DNA from: Escherichia phage vB_EcoM_G17
Sequence record: MK327931.1
Direction: 5' to 3' (one strand)
Length of the DNA stretch: 64,000 bases
The notes under the pieces are model-generated. The model saw only the letters and a list, made by a program, of their open reading frames with translations. It made no database searches and was not told the origin of the DNA. A program made the position numbers and the translations under genes. Of this stretch, positions 44,165-55,652 are shown piece after piece; the stretch's first letter is position 1; every line of letters begins with the position of its first letter.

Positions 44165-44184
44165 GATAAAACTCCTTAATTTAG

Positions 44185-44246
44185 GAGGGAGAACCATTTC
44201 CCCCTCTCTATGTAAAACATTATACTTGATTCTAAGTACTATGCAA
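44185..44246 (-). promoter_or_regulatory. promoter + 5' leader hairpin cassette
   Basis: -35 TTGCAT 44241-46, 16-nt spacer, -10 TATAAT 44219-24; hairpin GAGGGGGAA/UUCUCCCUC 44185-44206. Confidence 0.75.
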
Positions 44247-44253
44247 GTACTTT

Positions 44254-44586
44254 TTACATTTTAATACCTGGATTCAGGTAGCGGTGAGATCCATATTCTG
44301 GATCGGTTTCGGTCCAGTACTGTAAATCGATAGTACCTTTCGCGTTAATCTTGTCTACCAGCTTATTCATCTTAGTGTATACTACGTCAGCATCGATGCG
44401 TTTAAAGCCAGTAGCTTTAGTGAAGTAGTAGTGATTTGCTTCACTATCATTAAGGATATACCGAGCACCGTTTGCAGTCTGTGCGATAATGATTGAGTAT
44501 TCTACTTCCCGATCCAGACCGTCGATGAATACAGATGAAACATTGGTACGGATGAAAGCTTTAACGATAGCGATTGAAGTACTCAT
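44254..44586 (-). CDS. hypothetical protein
   Basis: 110-aa ORF, AGGAG SD. Confidence 0.75.
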   Translation of the reverse strand: MSTSIAIVKAFIRTNVSSVFIDGLDREVEYSIIIAQTANGARYILNDSEANHYYFTKATGFKRIDADVVYTKMNKLVDKINAKGTIDLQYWTETDPEYGSHRYLNPGIKM

Positions 44587-44639
44587 TTTGAATCTCCTAA
44601 CTTTGTGGGCCGTCGCACCATTGCCGCCCTACGAGATAC

Positions 44640-44668
44640 ATTATTGCAGTACTGATATACTTTGTCAA
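44640..44668 (-). promoter_or_regulatory. sigma70-like promoter
   Basis: -35 TTGACA 44663-68, 17-nt spacer, -10 AATAAT 44640-45. Confidence 0.65.
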
Positions 44669-44694
44669 TACTTTTTTTATTAATAGTTTTCACC

Positions 44695-44702
44695 CCACCA
44701 GC
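44695..44702 (-). other. Chi octamer GCTGGTGG on minus strand (intergenic)
   Basis: plus strand reads CCACCAGC. Confidence 0.85.
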
Positions 44703-44737
44703 AGATAGTTACTCACCGTTATTAACTATATATTTTA

Positions 44738-44814
44738 GATACACTCCTGCACCCAGTGGGCTAGTTTTTGTCTATGCGTATATAATAGCAAAGGGACTGA
44801 CCGGAGTCAATCCC
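44738..44814 (-). repeat. terminator/promoter/box module, copy 1
   Basis: hairpin GGGACTGAC..GTCAATCCC 44793-814 carrying -35 TTGACT 44805-10; 17-nt spacer; -10 TATTAT 44782-87; box AGCCCACTGGGTGCAGGAGTGTATC 44738-62. Confidence 0.65.
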
Positions 44815-44832
44815 TTTTTTTATTCTTTTTTG

Positions 44833-45033
44833 TTAGATGATTCTCCAATCTTCTACGATCATGGTAAGATAACGGACCATCGATTCAAGTGATTCGAATT
44901 CCCGATAGTCTGCCGCTCCACCAGCGGTACAAGTACAGCCGATTAAACCATTTTGTAATTCCTTAATCTGTACATCGATAAGGTTGGCTTTAGCTTCTTT
45001 CAGTACTTCAACCAGGGCGATAGCGATAGACAT
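44833..45033 (-). CDS. hypothetical small protein
   Basis: 66-aa ORF; contains a coding Chi at 44918-25. Confidence 0.7.
   Translation of the reverse strand: MSIAIALVEVLKEAKANLIDVQIKELQNGLIGCTCTAGGAADYREFESLESMVRYLTMIVEDWRII
44918..44925 (-). other. Chi octamer on minus strand (coding, A-G-G codons)
   Basis: plus strand reads CCACCAGC. Confidence 0.85.
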
Positions 45034-45056
45034 AATGTTTTACTCCAAACTATTGA

Positions 45057-45116
45057 CGGGAGAACTATTCCCCCGCTCTATGTAAAACATTATACATTAC
45101 TGGTTAGTACTGTCAA
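45057..45116 (-). promoter_or_regulatory. promoter + 5' leader hairpin cassette
   Basis: -35 TTGACA 45111-16, 16-nt spacer, -10 TATAAT 45089-94; hairpin CGGGAGAAC..TTCCCCCG 45057-75. Confidence 0.75.
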
Positions 45117-45122
45117 ATAGTT

Positions 45123-45380
45123 TTATGAAATATCTTCGATGTAGTCGGCCCATTTCATTTTTTCAGTACTGTCAATGGCTACCGGATTATTTGGATCAAA
45201 CCATTCACCATTCCCGCAATACATACCCACGGCAACGGTTTTATATCCATCCTGTGCAGTACTCCACGACATAGCACGATAGATATGGCCTTTAACTGGT
45301 TGCAATACTGGTAATGTTTTATGGTCTTCTACGTAGGCCATAGCTTGAGGATTTACCCGATATTGTGTGAACTGTTCCAT
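45123..45380 (-). CDS. hypothetical small protein
   Basis: 85-aa ORF. Confidence 0.7.
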   Translation of the reverse strand: MEQFTQYRVNPQAMAYVEDHKTLPVLQPVKGHIYRAMSWSTAQDGYKTVAVGMYCGNGEWFDPNNPVAIDSTEKMKWADYIEDIS

Positions 45381-45408
45381 TATGTTTCCCCTTGTAGTTA
45401 GTAAAGTT

Positions 45409-45437
45409 ATTACATCAGTACTATCAAGCTATGTCAA
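45409..45437 (-). promoter_or_regulatory. sigma70-like promoter
   Basis: -35 TTGACA 45432-37, 17-nt spacer, -10 TGTAAT 45409-14. Confidence 0.6.
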
Positions 45438-45456
45438 TAGTACTGAAATAAAACTT

Positions 45457-45681
45457 TTAGATTAGATTATTGATGCCGTTGATGGTAGACTCGCTTTCTT
45501 CTTTCTCCCATTGGCGGTAGTACTTCCATGCTTCATGATATGTGGCGATTAGTTCATCTTTTTGATCCTGAGTACATGCCAGTACTGAATCACGGTGAGC
45601 GGTTTTATAGATAGAATCGAATGATTTCTTCTCTTCTGCCAGGTTAGCTACTTCCCGCATCAGTTCATCAAAGTTAGCCAT
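45457..45681 (-). CDS. hypothetical small protein
   Basis: 74-aa ORF, AGGAG SD. Confidence 0.7.
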   Translation of the reverse strand: MANFDELMREVANLAEEKKSFDSIYKTAHRDSVLACTQDQKDELIATYHEAWKYYRQWEKEESESTINGINNLI

Positions 45682-45699
45682 TTTATTACTCCTTTTAGT

Positions 45700-45756
45700 G
45701 GGGGAGGATATCTCCCCCTATGCAAAACATTATACTTTGTTTTAGTTATTATGCAA
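45700..45756 (-). promoter_or_regulatory. promoter + 5' leader hairpin cassette
   Basis: -35 TTGCAT 45751-56, 16-nt spacer, -10 TATAAT 45729-34; hairpin GGGGGAG-gatat-CTCCCCC 45700-17. Confidence 0.75.
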
Positions 45757-46012
45757 GTACTTTTTTCATATAAAGATTATATTCTACACCGCCGTAACCT
45801 TCTACGATGATATGTTTTGCGTTATCACGTTTGCACATAGTGAAACCGTTGTTGATGTGTTCTGCATTTTCCAGGGCGACATCACCGATAGCGGCACATA
45901 CGGCACTAATAACAGTATTCCGCAAAGTACTGGTATCATTAGCGGTCATAGTAGTTTGCAGTACTACGTTGTCGTATACGTGTGCATTGATAGTGATTTC
46001 GATAGTGTTCAT
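45749..46012 (-). CDS. hypothetical small protein
   Basis: 87-aa ORF. Confidence 0.7.
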   Translation of the reverse strand: MNTIEITINAHVYDNVVLQTTMTANDTSTLRNTVISAVCAAIGDVALENAEHINNGFTMCKRDNAKHIIVEGYGGVEYNLYMKKVLA

Positions 46013-46030
46013 GGTGTATCTCCTGGACTG

Positions 46031-46091
46031 GCGGGAGAACTATTCCCCCGCTCTATGTAAAACATTATACGTTAATCTAACTACAATGCAA
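46031..46091 (-). promoter_or_regulatory. promoter + 5' leader hairpin cassette
   Basis: -35 TTGCAT 46086-91, 16-nt spacer, -10 TATAAT 46064-69; hairpin 46031-51. Confidence 0.75.
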
Positions 46092-46098
46092 GTACTTT

Positions 46099-46290
46099 TT
46101 AAATTTTATTTCCGATATAGTCCGGTCTATTCTTTTCGGTCATACGCTTTGCTAATGTTTGCATATGGCTTATTGCGTTTAATGTGTCTTCCTCCAGGGA
46201 TGAATCAACATAATCAGGATCATTCTTCACCTTGCAATGATTATGATAGCGTAGTACTGCCAGTACTTTTTTAACTTCTTCTACTGTCAT
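46099..46290 (-). CDS. hypothetical small protein
   Basis: 63-aa ORF, ATGA-coupled to 46287..46559. Confidence 0.65.
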   Translation of the reverse strand: MTVEEVKKVLAVLRYHNHCKVKNDPDYVDSSLEEDTLNAISHMQTLAKRMTEKNRPDYIGNKI

Positions 46291-46559
46291 AATAAGTACC
46301 CCACTTCGTTAGCTTTCAGGTTAGTATCAATCATCAGTGGATTTTTGTAGTTCACAAAACGATTAGTTTTCTCGATAGCGAATCCCATATAATCCAGCTT
46401 ACTAACAGTACATTCATTCTTAAAAACTTCTTTCGCTGCATCGATGGCTGATTGCATGGATAACCGACCATCTAAATTAATGTTTCCAAATGATCCACCA
46501 GCAGAAGTAGGATTACCGTTCATATCTTTAATGATCATAGTAGCGGAGTAGCTGGACAT
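46287..46559 (-). CDS. hypothetical small protein
   Basis: 90-aa ORF; contains a coding Chi at 46495-502. Confidence 0.7.
   Translation of the reverse strand: MSSYSATMIIKDMNGNPTSAGGSFGNINLDGRLSMQSAIDAAKEVFKNECTVSKLDYMGFAIEKTNRFVNYKNPLMIDTNLKANEVGYLL
46495..46502 (-). other. Chi octamer on minus strand (coding, A-G-G codons)
   Basis: plus strand reads CCACCAGC. Confidence 0.85.
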
Positions 46560-46581
46560 AATTTTGTTTCCTTTTAGTATC

Positions 46582-46640
46582 GGGGAGAACTATTCTCCCC
46601 TTGATGTAAACTATTATACAGTACTGATATACTTTGTCAA
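46582..46640 (-). promoter_or_regulatory. promoter + 5' leader hairpin cassette
   Basis: -35 TTGACA 46635-40, 16-nt spacer, TGnTATAAT -10 at 46613-18; perfect hairpin GGGGAGAA-cta-TTCTCCCC 46582-600. Confidence 0.8.
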
Positions 46641-46646
46641 ATACTT

Positions 46647-47054
46647 TTATTCGCCCATATAGATTAAGTTATCATCGCCTACATAGGGATCGCAAACGTT
46701 GATTTCTTCGCAGTACTTCGTGAATACATCGCCATAGTGACCTAAACCACGATCCCAAAAACCAGTTCCGTGACCTTCGCGGGTAAGGAACAGATCATGA
46801 CCAGCTTGCTCATAACCGTAATCAATAAACATACCGCGAACTACTTCCAGATCATTACCGTGTTTCTCAATGAAGCGAGAACATGCAATCACCGCCGCTT
46901 GACGTGCTTCATCAGATAACTCATAATCTTCCAGGTAATCGCCGTTATCATTATGTACAGTACTGAATTGCATAGCTTCAATGTAAGCTACAACCATTGC
47001 AGCATGATTTTTATCGTTAGTGATGTTCCGAGCGAGATTAGTAGTAGTAGACAT
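46647..47054 (-). CDS. hypothetical protein
   Basis: 135-aa ORF; motif AGHDLFLTREGHGTGFWDRG, family not identified. Confidence 0.75.
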   Translation of the reverse strand: MSTTTNLARNITNDKNHAAMVVAYIEAMQFSTVHNDNGDYLEDYELSDEARQAAVIACSRFIEKHGNDLEVVRGMFIDYGYEQAGHDLFLTREGHGTGFWDRGLGHYGDVFTKYCEEINVCDPYVGDDNLIYMGE

Positions 47055-47075
47055 GATTTTATTCCTTATTGTATT

Positions 47076-47134
47076 GGGGAGAACTATTCTCCCCTTGATG
47101 TAAACTATTATACAGTACTGATATACTTTGTCAA
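47076..47134 (-). promoter_or_regulatory. promoter + 5' leader hairpin cassette
   Basis: near-identical copy of 46582-46640: -35 TTGACA 47129-34, -10 TATAAT 47107-12, hairpin 47076-94. Confidence 0.8.
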
Positions 47135-47137
47135 TAC

Positions 47138-47359
47138 TTAATTACGTTTAAAATGATATGTGCCTTTATCATCCTGTACGCCCCACACTGATTTACCATC
47201 AACACCAGTGAAACCGGATTGTAATTCAATATGGAAACCATTATTATCAACTACAAAAACTTTTTTATTTTCATCCCGATAACATTGATATTCTGAATCA
47301 ACATTAAAGGCCGCATCATTCAGAAGATTGGAAGCGTAAATGCAAGTCATTGTAGTCAT
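47138..47359 (-). CDS. hypothetical small protein
   Basis: trimmed to MTTMTCIY (the track N-term crosses hairpin and promoter). Confidence 0.7.
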   Translation of the reverse strand: MTTMTCIYASNLLNDAAFNVDSEYQCYRDENKKVFVVDNNGFHIELQSGFTGVDGKSVWGVQDDKGTYHFKRN

Positions 47360-47379
47360 GATTTTATTCCTTATTACCA

Positions 47380-47439
47380 GGGAGAACCATTTCCCCCTCT
47401 CTATGTAAAACATTATACTTGATTCTAAGTACAATGCAA
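47380..47439 (-). promoter_or_regulatory. promoter + 5' leader hairpin cassette
   Basis: -35 TTGCAT 47434-39, 16-nt spacer, -10 TATAAT 47412-17; hairpin 47380-97; near-identical to 44185-44246. Confidence 0.75.
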
Positions 47440-47484
47440 GTACTTTTTATCAAATAGTTTTCAGTACTGAATACTTATATAATA

Positions 47485-47566
47485 GATACACTTCCGCACC
47501 CTATGGGTCAGTGAGTTATCTCTCAATGAATATATAATAGCAAAGGGACTGACCGGAGTCAATCCC
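47485..47566 (-). repeat. terminator/promoter/box module, copy 2
   Basis: hairpin 47545-66 with -35 TTGACT 47557-62; 17-nt spacer; -10 TATTAT 47534-39; box GACCCATAGGGTGCGGAAGTGTATC 47485-509. Confidence 0.65.
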
Positions 47567-47580
47567 TTTTTTAATCTTTT

Positions 47581-48165
47581 TTATCGTGTTACCTTACTTG
47601 CTTCTACATCACGCTTTTTATAGTACTGATTCCAGATATTGCGGGTTAAACCGTAATCAAGTACTTTAATAAGGCCATTACGATCCTGGCCGATATTCTG
47701 TTTTCTGATATCTCTTATCGTTAGTGTTGATAATGTATCATCAACGTGTTGTAGTGCATCAGCAAAGCGGTGCTGGCGTTCAATGGCATTACGTTTAATA
47801 TTGTACTTTAATTCATTGCACGCGTTTACGTGCTTTACACTGCCTTTACTTGCAGTACTCAACCGATCCATAACGATAAACATATTATCAGGATCGCATA
47901 AATGCATATGCACCTTTGCAAAGTACTGTTTCAATTGAGGGCGGTCATAATCTAAAAAATTCCATACCTTACATTCAGTTTCATTTTGTTCTACACCCGC
48001 ATCACAATTCGCGACCTTGATCACTAACCGATCATTTAAAGCGAATACAATACGGGAAGAACCCGCACCGATGATCTCCAGACCAGCTAACCGACAAGCT
48101 GAAAGGATCTCTTTGTTGGTTTCCATTTCTGACAGGGTACGGATGAATTTAGTATAATTACGCAT
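47581..48165 (-). CDS. protein kinase-like protein (eukaryotic-like kinase fold)
   Basis: trimmed to MRNYTKF after AAGGAGAA; GAGSSRIVF (Gly loop), VIKV (Lys), RDIRKQNIG (D-x4-N catalytic loop), LDYG (DFG-like). Confidence 0.6.
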   Translation of the reverse strand: MRNYTKFIRTLSEMETNKEILSACRLAGLEIIGAGSSRIVFALNDRLVIKVANCDAGVEQNETECKVWNFLDYDRPQLKQYFAKVHMHLCDPDNMFIVMDRLSTASKGSVKHVNACNELKYNIKRNAIERQHRFADALQHVDDTLSTLTIRDIRKQNIGQDRNGLIKVLDYGLTRNIWNQYYKKRDVEASKVTR

Positions 48166-48196
48166 TGCATGTTCTCCTTGAGTTAATGAAACTATC

Positions 48197-48439
48197 TTAC
48201 AGTACTTTACTATCAATGGCAACTACTTTTTTAACATTAACGGCGTGGATCACCTCCTTAGTGTTTTTAGTACTGAATACTTTCGCCGCCCCATTCACGA
48301 CCGTGATACGATAGCGACCATTAACATCAACCATATTAATAAAGTCCGGCGTGCTGAATGGTGTTGTTTTACATTTGAGTACTGTTAACAATTCCACCAG
48401 CGATGTAGTTTCTTTGATACGTTTTTCTAAAGTAATCAT
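48197..48439 (-). CDS. hypothetical small protein
   Basis: 80-aa ORF; contains a coding Chi at 48394-401. Confidence 0.7.
   Translation of the reverse strand: MITLEKRIKETTSLVELLTVLKCKTTPFSTPDFINMVDVNGRYRITVVNGAAKVFSTKNTKEVIHAVNVKKVVAIDSKVL
48394..48401 (-). other. Chi octamer on minus strand (coding)
   Basis: plus strand reads CCACCAGC. Confidence 0.85.
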
Positions 48440-48468
48440 TTTGTTTTTCCCCGTGTTGGTATGTACAT

Positions 48469-48497
48469 ATAGTACTAAAACATTTGAGTACTGTCAA
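48469..48497 (-). promoter_or_regulatory. sigma70-like promoter
   Basis: -35 TTGACA 48492-97, 17-nt spacer, -10 TACTAT 48469-74. Confidence 0.65.
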
Positions 48498-48716
48498 TTA
48501 GATAATATTATATTTCTTAAAATAAAATGCGTCCTGTGTTGGTTGATACTCAATGCCATTGCCGTTATTGACTTCAACTAATAAACCTTTGTCAATAAGT
48601 TTTTTAATAGTACGATACCCTTGTTGAAAATTGGTAAAATGTGAATCATTACGAAAGGTATAACCGTGCTTAACTGCTTCATCAATAGTTTTCTTTTCGA
48701 TTTTAGATAATTTCAT
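48498..48716 (-). CDS. hypothetical small protein (possible winged-helix-like)
   Basis: trimmed to MKLSKIEKK; YRTIKKLIDKGLLVEV helix-like segment, weak. Confidence 0.65.
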   Translation of the reverse strand: MKLSKIEKKTIDEAVKHGYTFRNDSHFTNFQQGYRTIKKLIDKGLLVEVNNGNGIEYQPTQDAFYFKKYNII

Positions 48717-48744
48717 TTTGTTTCTCCCGTGTTGGTATATGTAC

Positions 48745-48773
48745 ATAGTACTAAAACATTTGAGTACTGTCAA
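48745..48773 (-). promoter_or_regulatory. sigma70-like promoter (paralog of 48469-48497)
   Basis: -35 TTGACA 48768-73, 17-nt spacer, -10 TACTAT 48745-50. Confidence 0.65.
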
Positions 48774-49024
48774 CGTGATATTAGTTTTATTTTCTTATTA
48801 TATTGTTGGTGTTCATATAGGTTTATCTTTCCTGTGTTCTCAATTACTATTCTGTTGTTAGTGTCCACATCGATTACACGCAGTTTCCCGTTGCTTAACT
48901 TCCTTGGTAATAGGTTACCATTAATAAACTCATTAGCAAGCTGTACGGCCTTTGTGATGATTCTCTTCGGTGCTTTATAGTGTACCCGTAAGATGTTATC
49001 TTTATATAGTTGAACCTTAATCAT
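48770..49024 (-). CDS. hypothetical small protein
   Basis: 84-aa ORF. Confidence 0.65.
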   Translation of the reverse strand: MIKVQLYKDNILRVHYKAPKRIITKAVQLANEFINGNLLPRKLSNGKLRVIDVDTNNRIVIENTGKINLYEHQQYNKKIKLISR

Positions 49025-49038
49025 TTTGTTTGTCCTAT

Positions 49039-49063
49039 AAAAAAGGCGGGAACTGATCCCGCC
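49039..49063 (-). terminator. rho-independent terminator
   Basis: GGCGGGA-5nt-TCCCGCC followed by T6 on minus strand after 49086..49490. Confidence 0.8.
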
Positions 49064-49085
49064 GTGTTGTTAGTACTGCAAGTTA

Positions 49086-49490
49086 TTAGATAACCTGGCG
49101 GCGTTTACTGAATACTGTTACACGATTACCCTTACGGTCGTGTCGGATCTCTTTCTGGTTGCGAATCAGTTCACTTGGACGCTTAAGGTTTGCCAGGTGA
49201 TCCGCGTGAGTCCATGCGGTGTGGTTTACCTGTACTTTGATATCAGAATCAGCGATAAACTCATCTTGTGCGTCAAGTATTGCCGCCAGCATATCCGCTC
49301 GTTTTAGTTCTGCTGCTGTCAGTACTGGCTCAGGTGAATTCACAATATCAGAGATTTCTTTGAACTGTACGGCCCAGCGTTGACCTTTCGGTGCATCTTT
49401 GCCCATGTCTTTAAATGCTGCTCCTTCCTCGCGTGCAACAATACGGGCAGCTTCACGGGTAGCGTAGAATTTAGTAATCATGGTATACAT
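49086..49490 (-). CDS. hypothetical protein, paralog of 61268..61534
   Basis: shared FYATREAARI..GA.FKDMG..G.RWA and C-term DRKGNRVTV. Confidence 0.75.
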   Translation of the reverse strand: MYTMITKFYATREAARIVAREEGAAFKDMGKDAPKGQRWAVQFKEISDIVNSPEPVLTAAELKRADMLAAILDAQDEFIADSDIKVQVNHTAWTHADHLANLKRPSELIRNQKEIRHDRKGNRVTVFSKRRQVI

Positions 49491-49525
49491 CCTATTAGTT
49501 GAGATAGTACTACAAGTTAGAGTCT

Positions 49526-49554
49526 ATTATAAAGTACTATCTGGGCAATGTCAA
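49526..49554 (-). promoter_or_regulatory. sigma70 consensus promoter
   Basis: -35 TTGACA 49549-54, 17-nt spacer, -10 TATAAT 49526-31. Confidence 0.75.
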
Positions 49555-49576
49555 ATAGTACTTTAAATGGATTCTA

Positions 49577-49900
49577 TTACATGTCTTTCTTACGTTTTAC
49601 ATCGTAGTATCGAACTGTAATTTCTTTGTTGATCTCTTCCTCGATGCGGTGAATAACTTTTTCTTTCGGGTTGAAACCTATAACGGTTTCTTTAATGATC
49701 TCCAAGCCCGTGTATTCGCCTTGTGTACCGTAACCGTATGTAAAGGTTTCGTGTCCCAGGTCTTCCCAGCGGTCGCCAATTAACGCTGACACGTAGCAAG
49801 AGTGGTAAGTATTGCCGTTCCGATCAGTCCAGCGATTAACTTTAATGTCAAAGGAGGTTACAATTTTCAGTTCTACTTTCTGGGTAAGGATCATAGCCAT
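49577..49900 (-). CDS. hypothetical protein, paralog of 55695..56018
   Basis: shared RWTD..GNTYHSC.VS...FTYGY...VKRKKD. Confidence 0.75.
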   Translation of the reverse strand: MAMILTQKVELKIVTSFDIKVNRWTDRNGNTYHSCYVSALIGDRWEDLGHETFTYGYGTQGEYTGLEIIKETVIGFNPKEKVIHRIEEEINKEITVRYYDVKRKKDM

Positions 49901-49923
49901 TTTTATTTCTCTCTCTTTGTTAG

Positions 49924-49984
49924 GAGGGGAACCATTCCCCTCGCTTGATGTAAACTATTATACAGTACTAAGATACTTTGTCAA
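49924..49984 (-). promoter_or_regulatory. promoter + 5' leader hairpin cassette
   Basis: -35 TTGACA 49979-84, 16-nt spacer, -10 TATAAT 49957-62; hairpin GAGGGGAA..TTCCCCTC 49924-42. Confidence 0.8.
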
Positions 49985-49987
49985 TAC

Positions 49988-50170
49988 TTATTTTTTGGAA
50001 AGTTTACGCATTAATTCTACGCTTTCTTGTGAACGTTTTGCTACCTGGCAAGCTGTATGGGCAGTAAACATTTTTGTATAGTCTGACGCTTTGCCACCAA
50101 ACCGAGCGGCACGTTCACGGGCACTTGGAACTAATACTATTTCTTTCTTGCAGATAGTGCACTTAGCCAT
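49988..50170 (-). CDS. small Cys-containing protein (possible zinc ribbon)
   Basis: trimmed to MAKCTICKKE; C-x2-C ... H-x2-C. Confidence 0.65.
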   Translation of the reverse strand: MAKCTICKKEIVLVPSARERAARFGGKASDYTKMFTAHTACQVAKRSQESVELMRKLSKK

Positions 50171-50193
50171 TTTTATTTCTCTCTCTTTGTTAG

Positions 50194-50255
50194 GAGGGGA
50201 ACCGTTTCCCCTCACTTGATGTAAACTATTATACAGTACTAAGATACTTTATCAA
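50194..50255 (-). promoter_or_regulatory. promoter + 5' leader hairpin cassette (~85-bp duplicate of 49903-49985)
   Basis: -35 TTGATA 50250-55, 16-nt spacer, -10 TATAAT 50228-33; hairpin 50194-213. Confidence 0.75.
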
Positions 50256-50258
50256 TAC

Positions 50259-50534
50259 TTAAGTATTGTAAATGTCGTGAATAGTGATAAAGTTTTTACG
50301 ACCGTAAACCTGCAAATCAATATCAATGTAGTGCTTATCTAGTACATCCTCGACGCTTAACGCGGTGTCGTGGATATCTTCGTAGAATTGAGGATCTACA
50401 ATCTTGCTTAAGTCATCCGGCGTTAACTTATCGTTAAGCCATTGAACCGCCTGGATATCTGCTTCACGTTTCCAGTCTTCCAGGTTAGTAGTCAGTACTT
50501 GTTCGATTTCGTTAGCTGTCAGTAGAATCCGCAT
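50259..50534 (-). CDS. hypothetical small protein
   Basis: 91-aa ORF. Confidence 0.7.
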   Translation of the reverse strand: MRILLTANEIEQVLTTNLEDWKREADIQAVQWLNDKLTPDDLSKIVDPQFYEDIHDTALSVEDVLDKHYIDIDLQVYGRKNFITIHDIYNT

Positions 50535-50567
50535 TTTTATGTTTCCTTATCAGTGGTTGATGTAAGT

Positions 50568-50595
50568 ATTATACTCGTTTACTTTCTATTGTCAA
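50568..50595 (-). promoter_or_regulatory. sigma70-like promoter (proximal of a tandem pair)
   Basis: -35 TTGACA 50590-95, 16-nt spacer, -10 TATAAT 50568-73. Confidence 0.7.
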
Positions 50596-50605
50596 ACTAT
50601 TTTAT

Positions 50606-50674
50606 CAGGGGAGTTTTTCGTATGTCTTACTCCTGGACTACTTAACAGGGTTACTTATTTCGTTCCCCGTCCTG
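50606..50674 (-). promoter_or_regulatory. conserved ~70-nt leader element, copy 1
   Basis: CAGGGGAGTTTTTCG..CTTACTCCTGG.CTACTTAAC..CGTTCCCCGTCCTG; complementary ends; copies at 60594-60664 and (diverged) 57590-57647. Confidence 0.45.
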
Positions 50675-50683
50675 ATGTAAAAC

Positions 50684-50711
50684 ATTATACTTGATTCTAA
50701 GTACAATGCAA
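50684..50711 (-). promoter_or_regulatory. sigma70-like promoter (distal of a tandem pair)
   Basis: -35 TTGCAT 50706-11, 16-nt spacer, -10 TATAAT 50684-89. Confidence 0.7.
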
Positions 50712-50742
50712 GTACTTTTTTAAAAATAGTTTTCAGTACTAG

Positions 50743-50750
50743 CCACCAGC
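50743..50750 (-). other. Chi octamer on minus strand (intergenic)
   Basis: plus strand reads CCACCAGC. Confidence 0.85.
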
Positions 50751-50758
50751 AAACAATA

Positions 50759-50835
50759 GATACATTTATGCACCCTGTGGGCTGATTTGTTTCTATGCGT
50801 ATATAATAGCAAAGGGACTGACCGGAGTCAATCCC
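50759..50835 (-). repeat. terminator/promoter/box module, copy 3
   Basis: hairpin 50814-35 with -35 TTGACT 50826-31; 17-nt spacer; -10 TATTAT 50803-08; box AGCCCACAGGGTGCATAAATGTATC 50759-83. Confidence 0.65.
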
Positions 50836-50849
50836 TTTTTCAAATATTT

Positions 50850-50999
50850 TTAAACTTCTTTCGGGTTGCGATAGGTGATAGCGTTCGGGTACATTTGTTT
50901 AATGTTATTCCATGCCTGGTTAACATTATAACCACTTGAGCGAATCAGTTGGTTACTACCGACACCTTGAAACACTACTTCGAATAAGAATTCTTTCAT
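50850..50999 (-). CDS. small protein (49 aa)
   Basis: below track cutoff; ATGA-coupled to the upstream ORF; MKEFLFEVVFQGVGSNQLIRSSG... Confidence 0.5.
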   Translation of the reverse strand: MKEFLFEVVFQGVGSNQLIRSSGYNVNQAWNNIKQMYPNAITYRNPKEV

Positions 51000-51169
51000 G
51001 CTTTCACCTCGCTATCTGCTTTACCTTTACGCCAGGACATTACTAATTGTTCGCGTTGCCATAAGTCGAGTGATACAAAAAGTTTTGCGGTATCACTTTT
51101 AGGATACTCGCCAGTAGTACCTAACCGATAAAACAGATCTTTCAGTACTGATAATTCTACTTGAATCAT
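50996..51169 (-). CDS. small protein (57 aa)
   Basis: below track cutoff; ATGA-coupled on both sides. Confidence 0.5.
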   Translation of the reverse strand: MIQVELSVLKDLFYRLGTTGEYPKSDTAKLFVSLDLWQREQLVMSWRKGKADSEVKA

Positions 51170-51258
51170 TTTATTACTCCTGATTGCGTTAATACTTCTA
51201 CTATTGCATGAATGATCATAAGTACAGCTAACACAATAATCATCGGATTCATTTGCAT
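51166..51258 (-). CDS. hydrophobic micro-protein (30 aa)
   Basis: MQMNPMIIVLAVLMIIHAIVEVLTQSGVIK; ATGA-coupled to the next ORF. Confidence 0.4.
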   Translation of the reverse strand: MQMNPMIIVLAVLMIIHAIVEVLTQSGVIK

Positions 51259-51275
51259 AAGCTGTACTCCTTATA

Positions 51276-51488
51276 TTAATCTTTCAGCCAATGATCTTGA
51301 ATGAATTTTTCACCGTATCCCTGTTTCATGGATTCTAACAGGCGTTCGCGGTGAGCGGCGGCATATTGCTCAGTACTATGCGTTACGCCAGGCTGATAAC
51401 GTGATACCCCATCCGGTCCGATGTATTGTACATCCCACGGTTTTTCGTTAGTATCAGACCATTTACGAACGATTAGTTGACCTTGCAT
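51276..51488 (-). CDS. hypothetical small protein
   Basis: 70-aa ORF, first gene of a 4-gene mini-operon. Confidence 0.7.
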   Translation of the reverse strand: MQGQLIVRKWSDTNEKPWDVQYIGPDGVSRYQPGVTHSTEQYAAAHRERLLESMKQGYGEKFIQDHWLKD

Positions 51489-51505
51489 TTTTCTTTCCTC
51501 TCAGT

Positions 51506-51565
51506 GGGGAGAATCATTTCTCCCCTTCATGTAACTTATTATACAGTACTAGATTATCTTGTCAA
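51506..51565 (-). promoter_or_regulatory. promoter + 5' leader hairpin cassette
   Basis: -35 TTGACA 51560-65, 16-nt spacer, -10 TATAAT 51538-43; hairpin GGGGAGAA-tcat-TTCTCCCC 51506-25. Confidence 0.8.
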
Positions 51566-51571
51566 TAGTTT

Positions 51572-51895
51572 TTATTCACCTTGTTTGAATTTAGTTTTCT
51601 CCATTGATTCCATGATTGCAACCAATACGCTGTGGATCTCGCTTAACGCGGAATCACTGAAAGCATTAATGAATAGTCGATCATTCTCGCGAATATTTTT
51701 AATGTACTTTTCAGCAGTAGTTGCGAATTCATTCAACGGTAGATCAAATGCTTTATCCCATGATGGATGGCGTAATTGTAACAGTACTGGATTATCACGA
51801 TCACCAGGGGAAAACGTACCAGTGATGAAACATACGCCCGGAATACTTTCGAACTGGCAACGGACTTCCTTTGTGATAGTAGTATGAATGTACAT
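51572..51895 (-). CDS. hypothetical protein
   Basis: 107-aa ORF. Confidence 0.7.
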   Translation of the reverse strand: MYIHTTITKEVRCQFESIPGVCFITGTFSPGDRDNPVLLQLRHPSWDKAFDLPLNEFATTAEKYIKNIRENDRLFINAFSDSALSEIHSVLVAIMESMEKTKFKQGE

Positions 51896-51922
51896 TTATT
51901 GTTATCCTCTATTAAATTAATA

Positions 51923-52117
51923 TTACAGTTTATGAATCAATTCTTTATCTAAGCGATAGCGTACATTATTAATAGTAACGGCATTGTTTTTAATGCTACG
52001 CTGTACAGGTCCACCAGCAATAACAAATGTTGCTTTATTACCCCGAACAATGATAGCACTTCCAGGATTACCGAAATCATCTTGTACTAAAATACTTGAT
52101 AAGTTTTCCATTTTCAT
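51923..52117 (-). CDS. hypothetical small protein
   Basis: 64-aa ORF; contains a coding Chi at 52011-18. Confidence 0.7.
   Translation of the reverse strand: MKMENLSSILVQDDFGNPGSAIIVRGNKATFVIAGGPVQRSIKNNAVTINNVRYRLDKELIHKL
52011..52018 (-). other. Chi octamer on minus strand (coding, A-G-G codons)
   Basis: plus strand reads CCACCAGC. Confidence 0.85.
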
Positions 52118-52129
52118 TTCCTCTTAGTA

Positions 52130-52186
52130 GGGGAAGATGTTTCCCCTTGATGTAAGTACTATAACACTACTGGATAGTACTGTCAA
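52130..52186 (-). promoter_or_regulatory. promoter + 5' leader hairpin cassette
   Basis: -35 TTGACA 52181-86, 17-nt spacer, -10 TATAGT 52158-63; hairpin GGGGAA..TTCCCC 52130-46. Confidence 0.75.
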
Positions 52187-52192
52187 TACTTT

Positions 52193-52450
52193 TTATCTCA
52201 TAGATCTATGCCAACAATTACGCGGGGGACGTTTAAAAGTACTATCATGATCCTCCTGGCAAGTTATGCAGTACTTACATCCCTTAACAGCCTGGCGGCG
52301 ATTCTCAGGGATTTTATCGCCACAGTCGAGGCAATGTATCAGTGATTCTATTTGTGCGTTAATTTGCTTTCTAGCGTGGTTTACGGCGGCCTGAATCACT
52401 GCGTTAATCTCGTCTTGTTCGGCCCCGTCTTTCGCGAATCCTACAGCCAT
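52193..52450 (-). CDS. TraR/DksA-family C4 zinc-finger protein
   Basis: CLDCGDKIPENRRQAVKGCKYCITCQ matches the C-x2-C-x17-C-x2-C TraR/DksA signature with IP..RR. Confidence 0.75.
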   Translation of the reverse strand: MAVGFAKDGAEQDEINAVIQAAVNHARKQINAQIESLIHCLDCGDKIPENRRQAVKGCKYCITCQEDHDSTFKRPPRNCWHRSMR

Positions 52451-52647
52451 TATTTTAACCTTTTTCTATCATTAATTAATGCTTTCAGTACTATACTAAT
52501 AACTTGCAATGATTCATCAATGACTATAAAATTATTTTCTTTCATTAGATGATAGTTACCATTGATATTATATTCTAACGAGTACTGTTTACGTTTAATT
52601 TTTGATAATGTTTCTATTTGTTTTTGTACTGATTTCATGCTAATCAT
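52450..52647 (-). CDS. hypothetical small protein
   Basis: 65-aa ORF, 1-nt overlap with the TraR-like gene. Confidence 0.65.
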   Translation of the reverse strand: MISMKSVQKQIETLSKIKRKQYSLEYNINGNYHLMKENNFIVIDESLQVISIVLKALINDRKRLK

Positions 52648-52723
52648 TGTTAAACGTCCTGTAACGCATTCTAACGAGATAAACGGTTTAGTACTGGCAT
52701 TGTATAGGGTAATGAATTAAAGC

Positions 52724-52731
52724 CCACCAGC
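52724..52731 (-). other. Chi octamer on minus strand (intergenic, inside hairpin AGCCCAC..GTGGGCT)
   Basis: plus strand reads CCACCAGC. Confidence 0.85.
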
Positions 52732-52752
52732 GTTAACCAGTGGGCTATAATC

Positions 52753-52896
52753 TTACATCTTGCGGATAATCTTAACAGTATCTTTCACCGATTTACCGTC
52801 TTGCTGGCATTGCTCGATCATTGCGTATTGTTCTGCGGTCAGATCCTCGCCAGTTTTTGCCAGTACTGCGTCGATGAATGAATCCAGTGCGATCAT
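52753..52896 (-). CDS. small protein (47 aa), paralog of 56635..56787
   Basis: below track cutoff; own promoter; C-term CQQDGKSVKDTVKIIRKM vs CAKHGKTINETASIIDKL. Confidence 0.55.
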   Translation of the reverse strand: MIALDSFIDAVLAKTGEDLTAEQYAMIEQCQQDGKSVKDTVKIIRKM

Positions 52897-52940
52897 TTTA
52901 TTTCTCTCTTAGGTTAAGTTAACTACTGTTTATAAAACTT

Positions 52941-52968
52941 ATTATACAGTACTATCAAACGTTGTCAA
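52941..52968 (-). promoter_or_regulatory. sigma70 consensus promoter
   Basis: -35 TTGACA 52963-68, 16-nt spacer, -10 TATAAT 52941-46. Confidence 0.7.
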
Positions 52969-52995
52969 TATATTTAATAGTACTGGTAATATATT

Positions 52996-53175
52996 TTAGC
53001 GGTAATCGTCGTATGCTTTATTCACCTGGCGAATGTAACTTTCAAAGGCTTCGTCTACCGTTTCATACTCCCGAACATAATCACCATAGGAAACTACATA
53101 CATACCTTTTTGATCTTCAAACGTCATGATGATAGAATCCAGACCAACGATTTCAGTTTTTGCGATGATAGCCAT
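52996..53175 (-). CDS. small protein (59 aa)
   Basis: below track cutoff; AAGGAAT SD region; own promoter. Confidence 0.55.
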   Translation of the reverse strand: MAIIAKTEIVGLDSIIMTFEDQKGMYVVSYGDYVREYETVDEAFESYIRQVNKAYDDYR

Positions 53176-53211
53176 TTTTTTAATTCCTTAGTAGTGTAGT
53201 TGATAAAACTT

Positions 53212-53240
53212 ATTATGCCAGTACTATCAATCATTGTCAA
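53212..53240 (-). promoter_or_regulatory. sigma70-like promoter (duplicate of 56060-56088)
   Basis: -35 TTGACA 53235-40, 17-nt spacer, -10 CATAAT 53212-17. Confidence 0.7.
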
Positions 53241-53268
53241 TAGCTTTGATAGTACTGTGATAATATTT

Positions 53269-53481
53269 TTAGTTAATGATAGTCAGTGTAAAATTGTAAT
53301 CACCACAGCGATATAGCACGTTATTCCCAAATGTTCCAACTAATCGCACATCACACAAAACGCCGGTTTTTTCTTTTACTTCCTTGATACTTGTAACTCC
53401 TGTAATATCTTTATTAAAGTATTCATGATCTGAAAATAAAACTTGTTTTGCATTTTTTAATTTCGACCGGATATTAGCCAT
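53269..53481 (-). CDS. hypothetical small protein
   Basis: 70-aa ORF. Confidence 0.7.
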   Translation of the reverse strand: MANIRSKLKNAKQVLFSDHEYFNKDITGVTSIKEVKEKTGVLCDVRLVGTFGNNVLYRCGDYNFTLTIIN

Positions 53482-53501
53482 TTTGTTTTCTCTCTGTTAG
53501 T

Positions 53502-53561
53502 GGGGAGAAGTTTTTCTCCCCTTGATGTAAACTATTATACAGTACTATAATCTATTGTCAA
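53502..53561 (-). promoter_or_regulatory. promoter + 5' leader hairpin cassette
   Basis: -35 TTGACA 53556-61, 16-nt spacer, -10 TATAAT 53534-39; hairpin GGGGAGAA-gttt-TTCTCCCC 53502-21. Confidence 0.8.
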
Positions 53562-53576
53562 ACTATTTTTTTTATA

Positions 53577-53918
53577 TTATTCGAAATCTTCTGGACCGGA
53601 CTGATAATCATCTTCACCGTATGCACTTTCTAACTTCTCGCCAGTGTGGTCATCAGTTAGTGAGTCATCCTCATAGTTCACGTCTACGCCAGTGATGTAA
53701 AACTGGCTATCGTCTGGATCATTGAAATTAATTTTCTGTATGTTTACAATAACTGTATTGATGCCCAGGACACCGCCATCAGCCGTTACAAAGTACTGAT
53801 ATTTTTCACAACCGCCTGAATTGAAACCGTAATTAATTTCGGCCCGACCATCATTTAAACGCAGTGCCTGAGCGATGATTTCATTTTCAAAGTTAGATTG
53901 AGCAATTGAGATAGTCAT
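53577..53918 (-). CDS. hypothetical acidic protein
   Basis: 113-aa ORF. Confidence 0.7.
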   Translation of the reverse strand: MTISIAQSNFENEIIAQALRLNDGRAEINYGFNSGGCEKYQYFVTADGGVLGINTVIVNIQKINFNDPDDSQFYITGVDVNYEDDSLTDDHTGEKLESAYGEDDYQSGPEDFE

Positions 53919-53938
53919 GATTTGTTTCCTTATTACCA

Positions 53939-53997
53939 GGGGAAACCGTTTCCCCTTTCGATGTAAAACATTATACGCTTATTGAGATAGTTTGCAA
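53939..53997 (-). promoter_or_regulatory. promoter + 5' leader hairpin cassette
   Basis: -35 TTGCAA 53992-97, 16-nt spacer, -10 TATAAT 53970-75; hairpin GGGGAAAC-cg-TTTCCCC 53939-55. Confidence 0.75.
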
Positions 53998-54041
53998 GTA
54001 CTTTTTAAAAATAGTTTTCAGTACTCAAACATTATACAATA

Positions 54042-54122
54042 GATACACTCCTGCACCCTGTGGGCTAGTGAGCTATCTCTCAATGAATATATAATAGCAA
54101 AATGGCTGACCGAAGTCAACCA
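54042..54122 (-). repeat. terminator/promoter/box module, copy 4
   Basis: hairpin TGGCTGAC..GTCAACCA 54103-22 (compensatory changes vs other copies), -35 TTGACT 54114-19; 17-nt spacer; -10 TATTAT 54091-96; box 54042-66. Confidence 0.65.
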
Positions 54123-54128
54123 CTTTTT

Positions 54129-54266
54129 TCATTTATTTTTAGCTTTTAGAATCGCCGCCTTTCGTGTCATTCCTTGTTTGATGTACTCCTTTACTTTCGC
54201 TTTTTTAGCGTTTACCTTGTCTGCTTTCGTTTTAGGAGTACTGTAAATTATACCGTTAGGATTCAT
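54129..54266 (-). CDS. small basic protein (45 aa)
   Basis: below track cutoff; directly follows the stop of the upstream micro-ORF. Confidence 0.45.
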   Translation of the reverse strand: MNPNGIIYSTPKTKADKVNAKKAKVKEYIKQGMTRKAAILKAKNK

Positions 54267-54356
54267 TTAAATCACCATAAAGAATAGATAGGTTACTAAC
54301 AACGCCGCGATCAATGCACCGACCAGGGCCGAACTATAGTAAGCTAATGTTTTCAT
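54267..54356 (-). CDS. hydrophobic micro-protein (29 aa)
   Basis: MKTLAYYSSALVGALIAALLVTYLFFMVI; ATGA-coupled upstream. Confidence 0.4.
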   Translation of the reverse strand: MKTLAYYSSALVGALIAALLVTYLFFMVI

Positions 54357-54505
54357 TTTTTAGCCTGAAAATAATGTTTAATTTGTGCGGCGGTCAATGC
54401 ACAATTACGCAGGAAGTTTTCTGTATAACTGCGGCGAGTACTGAAAGAGAATTGACCTTTGCCGTTGCCGATAGTAACATCAAACCGAGCGTTGTATTGT
54501 TTCAT
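54353..54505 (-). CDS. small protein (50 aa)
   Basis: below track cutoff; AAGGAGAA SD; cassette upstream. Confidence 0.55.
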   Translation of the reverse strand: MKQYNARFDVTIGNGKGQFSFSTRRSYTENFLRNCALTAAQIKHYFQAKK

Positions 54506-54524
54506 TTTGATTCTCCTTGTATCA

Positions 54525-54586
54525 GGGGAGAACCATTTCCCCCCCCTCTATGTAAACAATTATACAGTACTGGAAACTAATTGCAA
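54525..54586 (-). promoter_or_regulatory. promoter + 5' leader hairpin cassette
   Basis: -35 TTGCAA 54581-86, 16-nt spacer, -10 TATAAT 54559-64; hairpin from 54525. Confidence 0.75.
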
Positions 54587-54589
54587 GTA

Positions 54590-54736: not shown

Positions 54737-54755
54737 TTCATATTCCTTAATTAGT

Positions 54756-55015: not shown

Positions 55016-55020
55016 ATTAA

Positions 55021-55614: not shown

Positions 55615-55652
55615 TATACGATCCTCTTAAGTTAATTTAATTTCTTTCCCCT

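Follow-up and report, generated by a model that had tools for sequence, protein, structure and literature searches.

The stretch of DNA analysed in this study, hereafter the window, comprises 64,000 nucleotides (nt) of Escherichia phage vB_EcoM_G17 (MK327931.1) and harbors, among small early genes, several copies of a promoter-linked sequence element, the box, which is characterized here as a candidate structured RNA. The sequence scanned comprised ∼77 kb of Escherichia phage Sharanji and 16–39 kb pieces of other relatives. Positions 44,000–55,000 of the window showed 100% identity to Sharanji (OR545507.1, Asteriusvirus, 350 kb), a window position being equal to the Sharanji record position plus 27,555. 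Alignment to relatives placed position 1 of phage fEgEco12 at about window 64,000, and in several records with determined termini, position 1 is exactly where the window sequence ends; window positions 63990–64000 apparently coincide, or nearly so, with the physical left end of the phage genome. The direct terminal repeat (DTR) of fEgEco12 measures 20,993 bp, as confirmed by restriction digests (PMC13070987), and the size of the Sharanji DTR is given as 20,668 bp (PMC11895373). Judged from the fEgEco12 start at ∼64,000 and these published lengths, window positions ∼43.3–64.0 kb are the DTR in reverse reading. The annotation of the relatives labels the same region DTR, and its small early genes are present on the minus strand of the window. 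The alignments of the window to relatives were found to be broken into many pieces. No tRNA or tmRNA gene was detected in the window by ARAGORN.

Four copies of a composite module were present on the minus strand at the positions reported in an initial annotation of this DNA. The string TTGACTYCGGTCAGYCMYTTTGCTATTAT, which spans the hairpin and promoter of the module, matched exactly four times in the window against an expectation of zero. Each module begins with a hairpin located 3–16 nt past the stop codon of an upstream open reading frame (ORF), namely, 44833–45033, 47581–48222, ∼50850–50999, and 54129–54266, the last of these (45 amino acids, ahead of copy 4) being unannotated. The hairpin forms a 12-bp stem over the −35, followed by UUUGCUAUUAU. 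The PeSL-type (defined below) terminator hairpins are located at 44790–44817 in copy 1 (AAAGGGATTGAC-TCCG-GTCAGTCCCTTT), 47542–47569 in copy 2, and 50811–50838 in copy 3 (promoter/terminator scan for copies 2 and 3), and at 54099–54126 in copy 4 (AAAGTGGTTGAC-TTCG-GTCAGCCATTTT). The −35 hexamer TTGACT is located in the 5′ arm, as had been noticed, and the promoter scan as well as pattern matching identified TTGACT-17-TATTAT with a TG extended −10 and an A-run upstream in all four modules (44782–44810, 47534–47562, 50803–50831, and 54091–54119). The predicted folding energy of the sense RNA hairpin was −19.5 kcal/mol for copies 1–3 and −15.9 kcal/mol for copy 4. The compensatory stem ascribed to copy 4 was confirmed, as two of its base pairs are changed on both sides relative to copies 1–3 (G-C to U-A and A-U to G-C). 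The suggestion that the same hairpin with its T-run would stop antisense transcription was supported in part by the predicted folds. On the plus strand, the T-run is better and longer but the stem is weaker (−13.3 kcal/mol for copies 1–3 and −6.4 kcal/mol for copy 4), because the G-U pairs of the sense RNA become A-C; antisense termination would be plausible for copies 1–3 and doubtful for copy 4.

Past the TATTAT promoter, each module carries the box, in which two small predicted hairpins, P1 and P2, are followed by GC and a conserved tail. The box RNA of copy 1 (44733–44783, 39.4 bits, E = 5e-7) contains a weak 3-bp P1 (UAG/CUA), P2 GCCC-ACU-GGGU, and the tail AGGAGUGUAUCUAA, while that of copy 2 (47480–47535, 72 bits) is composed of P1 UGAG-AGAUAA-CUCA, P2 ACCC-AUA-GGGU, and the tail GGAAGUGUAUCUAU. 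In copy 3 (50754–50804, 40.4 bits), P1 is degenerate and is followed by P2 GCCC-ACA-GGGU and the tail AUAAAUGUAUCUAU; copy 4 (54037–54092, 65.9 bits) has P1 UGAG-AGAUAG-CUCA, P2 GCCC-ACA-GGGU, and the tail AGGAGUGUAUCUAU. The gap between TATTAT and AGCCCA, given initially as about 15 nt, was found not to be a mere spacer but to measure 19 nt in copies 1 and 3 or 24 nt in copies 2 and 4 and to hold the further hairpin P1. An ordinary promoter of the TTGCAx/TTGACA-16/17-TATAAT type follows each copy, in agreement with the initial annotation: TTGACA-17-AATAAT at 44640–44668, ahead of ORF 44254–44586, and TTGCAA-16-TATAAT at 53970–53997 were obtained from the promoter scan, whereas TTGCAT-16-TATAAT at 47412–47439, followed by a hairpin in the 5′ untranslated region (UTR), and at 50684–50711 were read from the sequence and the repeat family to which they belong. 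The genes flanking the four modules are not paralogous and are unrelated both before and after the module, and hence the modules represent cassettes rather than duplicated segments; an origin by segmental duplication was rejected on the same ground.

The ordinary early promoters themselves constitute a repeat family of at least 24 copies on the minus strand of window 44200–62414 (e.g., 47392–47461, 50664–50733, and 53950–54019). The repeat consists of AAAAAGTACTTGCA-N16-TATAATG and then a conserved 5′ UTR hairpin of the GGGGAGAAC-CATT-TCTCCCC type just before the Shine–Dalgarno sequence, and almost every small early gene has its own copy. The promoter/terminator scan showed that the 3-kb blocks between the four modules contain 5–8 ordinary promoters each, at intervals of 300–800 bp, and almost no internal terminators.

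The hairpin-plus-promoter design is not peculiar to these modules and is a known one. Promoter-early stem-loops (PeSLs) are intergenic composites of T4-like phages, in which a strong sigma70 early promoter is combined with a G-run/C-run stem-loop adjoining or overlapping it (PMC2839356, PMC4122927). The promoter and terminator activities of PeSLs have been shown by experiment, termination being demonstrated for the RB49 PeSLs (PMC2839356), and PeSLs take part in gene shuffling, for which they are documented substrates (PMC2839356, PMC4122927). The PeSL consensus of nt-1/KVP40 reads A3-4G3-loop-C3T3-4 with TTGYVH-N17-TAWWAT (PMC2839356, PMC4122927), and the four modules conform to it. The front half of the module, i.e., the hairpin over the −35 and the TATTAT promoter, is a PeSL-type composite terminator/promoter and belongs to this known kind. 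Similar to PeSLs, the module hairpins are intergenic and located directly past the upstream stop codon, a sigma70-type early promoter with an A-run/AT-rich upstream region is present in all four modules, the stem-loop with the order A-run, G-run, loop, C-run, and T-run overlaps the promoter and is here a predicted terminator, and many copies occur among small early ORFs unrelated in sequence. However, in the classical cassette the 3′ end is formed by a Shine–Dalgarno sequence and the start codon of the following gene, whereas in the modules a structured RNA of 50 nt and another, ordinary promoter intervene before the next ORF. A distant BLAST search with copy 4 gave matches in KVP40-like Vibrio phages. 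In Vibrio phage ValKK3, the rIIB stop is followed by a near-identical AAAAAAAGGGTTGACTTCGGTCAGCCCTTTTGTGTATTAT and then directly by a Shine–Dalgarno sequence and ATG, with no box; phage D482 has a similar cassette, again with a Shine–Dalgarno sequence and ATG directly after it. Among the related jumbo phages, a hairpin over the −35 was present in 29 of 90 box units, its stem varying in a compensatory manner (e.g., GGGGTTGAC/GTTAACCC and GGCTTGAC/GTTAAGCC). With respect to the shuffling and indel trait of PeSLs, the flanking genes are unrelated, the alignments of the relatives are fragmented, and phage 121Q carries an extra unit, with no breakpoint mapped to the cassette. No description of PeSLs in RaK2-like jumbo phages was found in the literature searched.

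The box was not confined to the four modules. The box pattern of the initial annotation matched five times in the window (0 expected), and the box core CCCANNGGGTGC matched nine times (0.46 expected). Together with one degenerate copy, the nine core matches make up ten promoter-linked units, six on the minus strand (GGGTGC at 44754, 47501, 50775, 54058, 60859, and 62753) and four on the plus strand (58574, 60803, 62697, and 62913). Hence, the four reported copies were all present but form part of a set of ten units on both strands, six of which lack the PeSL-type hairpin. In every unit, GGGTGC is located 27–34 nt past a sigma70 −10 of its own orientation. All ten units lie inside the DTR (44.7–62.9 kb). 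A covariance model of the box detected nothing convincing in window positions 1–44,700, where the single match had E = 0.86, or in 13.5 kb beyond the window, and no box match was obtained in ∼100 kb of non-repeat sequence of Sharanji and relatives.

Unit 5 (58511–58655, plus strand) comprises a promoter, a predicted ∼105-nt RNA, and a terminator. Its promoter, TTGACA-17-CATAAT with TG, is located at 58511–58539 antisense to early genes (promoter scan), and its box RNA (58541–58595, 36.8 bits) contains P1 GAC-GAAACA-GUC and P2 ACCC-ACC-GGGU. The predicted RNA is closed by a bidirectional terminator hairpin at 58620–58640 (terminator scan and fold), which also serves the convergent minus-strand ORF 58646–58897, directly past whose stop it lies. 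Units 6 and 7 form a convergent pair. Unit 6 (minus strand) has a promoter TTGACT-17-CATAAT at 60891–60919, without a hairpin, and a box RNA at 60838–60892 (P1 UGGC-AGAUAA-GCCG, P2 GCCC-AUA-GGGU, 55.1 bits); unit 7 (plus strand) has a promoter TTGACA-17-CATAAT at 60747–60775 and a box RNA at 60774–60824 (31.2 bits), with the reverse-complement box of unit 6 being present 45 nt past its GGGUGC. In the second convergent pair, unit 8 (plus strand) consists of the promoter TTGACT-16-TATAAT (62635–62662) and a box RNA at 62661–62718 (P1 CGC-GAGAAA-GCG, P2 ACCC-CAGA-GGGU, 24.8 bits). The promoters of units 6–8 were identified by the promoter scan. The partner of unit 8, unit 9 (approximately 62735–62816, minus strand), is the degenerate copy, with a promoter-like TTGCTA-18-TACTAT, P1 ACU-GAGAA-AGU, ACCUGCUAGGGUGC, and the tail GGGAGUGUAUCC followed by a U-run, and was not detected by the covariance model. 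Unit 10 (plus strand) carries a promoter TTGCTT-16-TATAAT with TG at 62851–62878, read from the sequence, and a box RNA at 62879–62934 (P1 AGUC-GAGAAA-GACU, P2 GCCC-ACC-GGGU, 45.6 bits); the next plus-strand promoter is at 62976–63004.

The window and RaK2-like jumbo phages together yielded ∼90 distinct box units. The family was represented in Asteriusvirus of E. coli and Salmonella; in Klebsiella phages RaK2, K64-1, Muenster, KP13-7, and fENko-Kae01; in Cronobacter phage GAP32; in Yersinia phages fHe-Yen9-03 and fHe-Yen9-04; and in Serratia phage BF, Erwinia pEa_SNUABM phages, Pectobacterium phage CBB, Salmonella Munch-like phages, and Xanthomonas phages XbC2 and XaC1. Conservation in related phages, which the initial annotation had named as its own test, was thus found across the RaK2-like group. 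Motif identity overall was 75% across genera, with the promoter spacers and flanks being unrelated, and the units of annotated relatives are located in the terminal repeat. Copy number and position vary among close relatives, as exemplified by the extra unit of 121Q (piece L007, position 3705). In the fHe-Yen9-03 record, the −35/−10 signals are already marked at one box unit. A search of Rfam 15 gave no gathering-score match over the window; at E ≤ 5, three weak unrelated matches were obtained in 44–64 kb, none of them at a box. With regard to mimicry of a host sequence, no box similarity was found in 5,426 E. coli genomes, a search of a size at which short matches would not pass the E-value limit. 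No mention of the box was found in the literature on Sharanji, phAPEC6, CBB, fEgEco12, and other RaK2-like phages, whose papers describe at most RpoD-like promoters and UP elements (including PMC11895373, PMC13070987). Going by these comparisons, the box RNA is a new RNA family, although its general kind, i.e., phage early non-coding or promoter-proximal RNA, is already known.

Alignment of the units revealed a fixed order of parts in the first 45–50 nt of the predicted RNA, i.e., 5′-AU, P1, CUA, P2 (RCCC-N3-5-GGGU), GC, and the tail RGARRU-SURUCUAU, with the consensus AUAUnnnCAU-P1-CUA-P2-GC-RGARRUSURUCUAU. A promoter of the form TTGNNN-N16-18-NANNNT was present in 82 of the 90 distinct units from the window and relatives; its −10 ends at one model position in 71 of these 82, and a TG extended −10 (−15/−14) was found in 54. 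A nearly invariant CA occurs 7 nt past the −10 and is the likely transcription start, so placed that P1 would begin ∼2–3 nt from the 5′ end in most copies. P1 consists of a 3–5 bp stem and a purine-rich loop of 6–8 nt (AGAUAA, GCGAAA, GAGAAA, and AGAACAA). More than 25 stem variants were observed, including UGAG/CUCA, GGAG/CUCC, GCCA/UGGC, GACG/CGUC, AGACA/UGUCU, and CGC/GCG. In the model-based alignment, each of the four P1 pairs showed both-sided changes in 29–35 of 87 sequences, 92.7% of the cells were paired, and the covariation score was 0.405 compared with 0.13 for shuffled and ≤0.05 for slid partners. A model-free test revealed a hairpin of at least 3 bp in 68 of 77 units, with a mean hairpin score of 8.9; shuffled sequence averaged 6.7 and did not exceed 7.6 in 200 shuffles. 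P1 is weak, with just 2–3 bp, in ∼15 units including copies 1 and 3. The CCC/GGG of P2 is essentially invariant, its loop varies from 3 to 5 nt, and its closing pair is A-U (49) or G-U (32). Across P1 and P2, G-U/U-G pairs outnumbered A-C/C-A combinations by 48 to 2, which shows selection for pairing on the strand that the neighbouring promoter transcribes. The proposal that the box acts as RNA was upheld by these observations, while the regulator-binding DNA site offered as its alternative is disfavoured because the G-U pairs are strand-specific. The tail reads R-G-A-R-R-U-S-U-R-U-C-U-A-U, with its first fixed U conserved in 65 of 68 and its C in 64 of 68 sequences.

Several further roles of the tail were evaluated. 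A third helix inside the tail was rejected, as a mutual-information scan showed no Watson–Crick covariation. An attenuator-like alternative pairing of the tail with the P1 region, hinted at by the minimum free energy fold of copy 4, was also rejected, cognate duplexes (−5.07 kcal/mol) being comparable to non-cognate ones (−4.91 kcal/mol, p = 0.27). The tail as a Shine–Dalgarno sequence was dropped, since only about one-fourth of the tails contain GGAG, GAGG, or AGGA, and as a mini-ORF, since G occupies the possible AUG/GUG position in only 57%. With regard to sigma70-dependent and consensus pausing, inspection by eye revealed no −10-like hexamer and a partial match to G-11 G-10/Y-1 G+1.

The genomic contexts of 92 units were distributed as 29 tandem units with an ordinary promoter and, after it, an ORF downstream, 29 units without an ORF within 300 nt, 27 convergent units, and ∼1 unit in which the box is a direct 5′ UTR, found in one relative (piece L012, +12616). 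Nothing to be expressed or regulated is present downstream of ∼60% of the units. The tandem-promoter arrangement with the box in the longer transcript only, as described initially, is real for the four modules but fits only ∼29 of the 92 members. In antisense-oriented units of several genera, a hairpin starts 39–41 nt past GGGUGC, after AGUACUG and an A-rich run. In convergent pairs, the reverse-complement box of the partner is located exactly 45, 56, or 63 nt past GGGUGC. Two pairs with the 45-nt spacing are present in the window (60.8 and 62.7 kb); their read-through RNA would fold into a long box/anti-box hairpin of −44.7 kcal/mol (z = −4.7) and −28.8 kcal/mol (z = −4.0), respectively. Comparative analysis has shown the box to be a structured RNA domain, promoter-coupled and strand-specific, which occurs in multiple copies, is confined to the DTR, and has been conserved throughout a large clade of phages.

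Some additional sequence motifs were observed around the boxes. In the window, 63 sites of the palindrome CAGTACTG were counted, compared with 0.8 expected (e.g., at 44647, 47462, 58525, 58603, 60723, and 62865). It is found just upstream of the −10 in many early promoters and ∼20 nt past most boxes, marks the centre of convergent box pairs of the Yersinia and Erwinia relatives, and is further present inside coding repeats at 13–27 kb; a role as operator or modification site is conceivable. Convergent box pairs of relatives with 56- or 63-nt spacing have a central palindrome with AATGATAATCATT (L002 ∼8080–8110, L004 ∼340, L010 ∼3120, L012 ∼6100, L015 ∼800, and L016 ∼1040 and ∼7320, L numbers denoting sequence pieces), which is the core of the E. 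coli Fur-box consensus; no exact copy was present in the window. Two identical intrinsic terminators on the minus strand (57008–57029 and 57744–57765), composed of AGCCCACCTTAAACAGTGGGCT and a T-run, have the heptamer AGCCCAC in common with the box, which may reflect chance or common origin.

The short box RNA itself could be the product, i.e., the units could represent a new family of early non-coding RNA, a reading in which our confidence is about even. It was ranked first because ∼60% of the copies have nothing downstream and one subfamily has a conserved promoter-to-terminator architecture. According to this proposal, each module would consist of two separable parts, a PeSL-type cassette and a promoter-coupled box RNA. 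In the cassette, the RNA hairpin would terminate the upstream early operon, while the same DNA would provide two elements of an extended −10 sigma70 promoter, namely, the −35 from the 5′ arm and the 17-bp spacer from the loop, the 3′ arm, and the U-tract, so that this part would act as a compaction and insulation device. Host RNA polymerase would start at the conserved CA, and most units would function as stand-alone non-coding transcription units. Antisense-oriented units would stop at the hairpin 39–41 nt past the box and others would meet their convergent partner, while in sense-oriented units, including the four modules, transcription would continue into the next early promoter. The box RNA would accumulate as an abundant immediate-early small non-coding RNA, the 5′-terminal hairpin P1 shielding its 5′ end and the invariant P2, GC, and tail presumably serving as the handle for one conserved partner, which may be a factor found throughout the gamma-proteobacteria or a conserved protein of the phage clade. 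In the four modules, the RNA gene would have been inserted between the PeSL terminator and the promoter of the next gene.

Several observations weigh against a free non-coding RNA. The start sites, RNA 3′ ends, and expression of the box units are deduced from the sequence alone. In all four modules, there is no terminator between the box and the next promoter, and the box would therefore be a leader unless it is processed. The convergent pairs, in which the box would be buried in a long hairpin, favour a co-transcriptional role in cis over a stable free RNA. The P1 counts are based on an alignment fitted to the covariance model; plain MAFFT alignment of 55 units with RNAalifold recovered P2 but not P1, for which structure-aware alignment was needed. 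No covariation was seen in P2, whose pairing is deduced solely from the A-U/G-U alternation and the variable loop length. No protein that could act as partner was identified; a Pfam search of the 20 largest DTR ORFs gave no RNA-binding domain, the only matches being a weak kinase match, DUF7247, and DUF1033.

Early non-coding RNAs have been described from the terminal repeats of other phages. The long terminal repeat of phage K encodes the early small RNAs snc001–003 (PMC9241854), and the terminal repeat of PA5oct encodes ncRNA001 and ncRNA002, which are abundant throughout infection (PMC7318152). Like the box units, these are non-coding units of the terminal repeat transcribed from early on, some of them antisense to early genes. 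They differ in having no sequence or structure in common with the box RNA, and they were defined by RNA-seq, whereas the box family is defined by comparative structure only. The covariance model detected no box in the PA5oct terminal repeat at 7–23.5 kb, a piece that includes both of its non-coding RNAs, and a link between these RNAs and the box was rejected.

Elongation control in cis of the nut/put type, raised in the initial annotation, is a possible, though distinctly less probable, explanation. The nascent P1, P2, and tail would remain associated with the RNA polymerase that made them, with or without the help of a phage or Nus factor, and the polymerase so marked would read through PeSL and bidirectional terminators; antisense units would give short RNAs early and long antisense transcripts after the factor appears. 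The element lies directly past early sigma70 promoters and has two adjacent hairpins, as does put of HK022. P1 is boxB-like in its short covarying stem and conserved purine-rich loop, but its 3–5 bp stem and 6–8 nt loop differ from the 5-bp stem and GNRA-like pentaloop of boxB, to which the arginine-rich N protein binds. The succession of promoter, element, and terminator within 40–60 nt is the lambda layout, the free fold in convergent pairs exists only during transcription, and a universal partner, e.g., RNA polymerase, would be in keeping with a motif that is invariant among phages infecting many different hosts. In common with lambda nut and HK022 put, the box is promoter-proximal in nascent early transcripts and has small hairpins with conserved loops and variable stems as well as terminators downstream. 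However, it has no evident sequence similarity to these sites, is fixed at the very 5′ end, a strict coupling of P1 to the 5′ end that is foreign to nut and put, and is present in ten copies per repeat in both orientations as against one or two per operon in the known systems. Early genes with promoters every 300–800 bp and almost no internal terminators would need little read-through, and the ∼60% of units with nothing downstream to express do not fit such a role. No boxA (CGCTCTTA- or TGCTCTTTAACAA-like) was seen beside the hairpins when the leaders, linkers, and tails of 55–90 aligned units were inspected by eye, without a dedicated pattern search, and no obvious arginine-rich N-like ORF was identified among the DTR ORFs, which is a weak test. 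Compared by description, put is composed of two stem-loops of ∼70 nt in total that act in cis on RNA polymerase without a protein factor, whereas the box measures ∼35 nt plus the tail; the put hairpins are much larger than those of the box. A more elaborate version, which we regard as unlikely, is that the box RNA is a self-contained polymerase switch, put-like or needing a phage factor, such that antisense units would abort at their terminators early in infection and, with the switch turned on, box-marked polymerases would read through PeSL and bidirectional terminators; sense units would fuse early blocks and antisense units would silence early genes by convergent transcription. If true, it would represent a new RNA-encoded timing of early-gene shut-off in a T4-related jumbo phage.

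The remaining explanations account for less than either a non-coding RNA product or nut/put-type control. It is rather improbable that the box is only a 5′ stabiliser or processing leader, in which P1 would block 5′-end-dependent decay and P2 with the tail would form an RNase cleavage or binding site, merely tuning half-life. The proximity of P1 to the predicted 5′ end in most copies, the conserved 5′ UTR hairpin of the ordinary early genes of the region, and the one relative with the box as a direct 5′ UTR are in agreement with such a function, but a stabiliser would not need P2, GC, and tail to be invariant across genera, most units precede no gene, and the gene downstream of tandem units has its own promoter and its own 5′ hairpin. 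Still less probable is a mere recombination cassette, i.e., a PeSL-like mobile unit kept similar by gene conversion or shuffling, with a box devoid of its own function. In favour of it, shuffling at PeSLs is documented (PMC2839356, PMC4122927), the genes around the modules are unrelated, and copy number and position vary among close relatives, as in 121Q; gene conversion, however, yields neither compensatory P1 changes nor the 48:2 excess of G-U over A-C, and across genera the motif retains 75% identity next to unrelated promoter spacers and flanks. A double-stranded DNA operator or roadblock, at which a dimeric regulator would bind CCC-N3-GGGTGC past the start site and shut the promoters off, is very improbable. 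The core is partly palindromic and always located at ∼+20 to +35, and the convergent pairs with their fixed spacings of 45, 56, or 63 nt resemble inverted operator repeats. On the other hand, the half-site spacing varies from 3 to 5 nt, pairing is kept via G-U on one strand only, and the covarying neighbour P1 is unexplained at the DNA level.

A non-coding box RNA would be of interest as RaK2-like jumbo phages are under development against E. coli, Klebsiella, Cronobacter, Erwinia, and Xanthomonas, and the ∼20-kb terminal repeat, the site of clustered host-type early promoters, is annotated almost wholly as "hypothetical protein." With ten copies per repeat, i.e., twenty per virion DNA, and conservation across hosts, the box RNA is likely to be among the most abundant early products, and it suggests that a target in the host or in the takeover programme of the phage is conserved. 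Two hairpins and a tail of 14 nt make up this small motif, which offers clear mutational handles. Annotators gain a model for marking box units, separable from the PeSL cassettes that shape T4-like gene shuffling.

The terminal repeat was also enriched in the E. coli Chi sequence GCTGGTGG, which occurs 11 times in the window compared with 0.41 expected. Ten sites are present in the terminal repeat, nine of them on the early-gene strand (minus: 44695, 44918, 46495, 48394, 50743, 52011, 52724, 56926, and 63396; plus: 63408). Two sites lie inside modules 1 and 3, and two sites in inverted orientation form a pair ∼0.6 kb away from the physical end. Enrichment with the same strand bias, together with the inverted pair near the terminus, was also observed in fENko-Kae01 (12 on the gene strand and 2 on the opposite strand), GAP32, and the Yersinia, Erwinia, and Xanthomonas relatives, but not in the PA5oct piece. 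The orientation of the sites would suit RecBCD entry through the repeat copy at the right end.

Immediately past the end of the window (piece L001, 36711–40714, minus strand), ∼18 ORFs of 59–81 amino acids are arranged head-to-tail, with one ORF of 223 amino acids between them. The array is mostly unannotated, the Sharanji record giving four genes there. Families of coding-sequence repeats were found at window 36969–43147 and 13914–36309, with TTGATAGTTTGTTCCTAAGA...CACCCA in ten small minus-strand ORFs and ACAGTACTGTACTGGAAGAACTCTTCTTC at 13 places, which suggests large paralogous gene families adjoining the terminal repeat.

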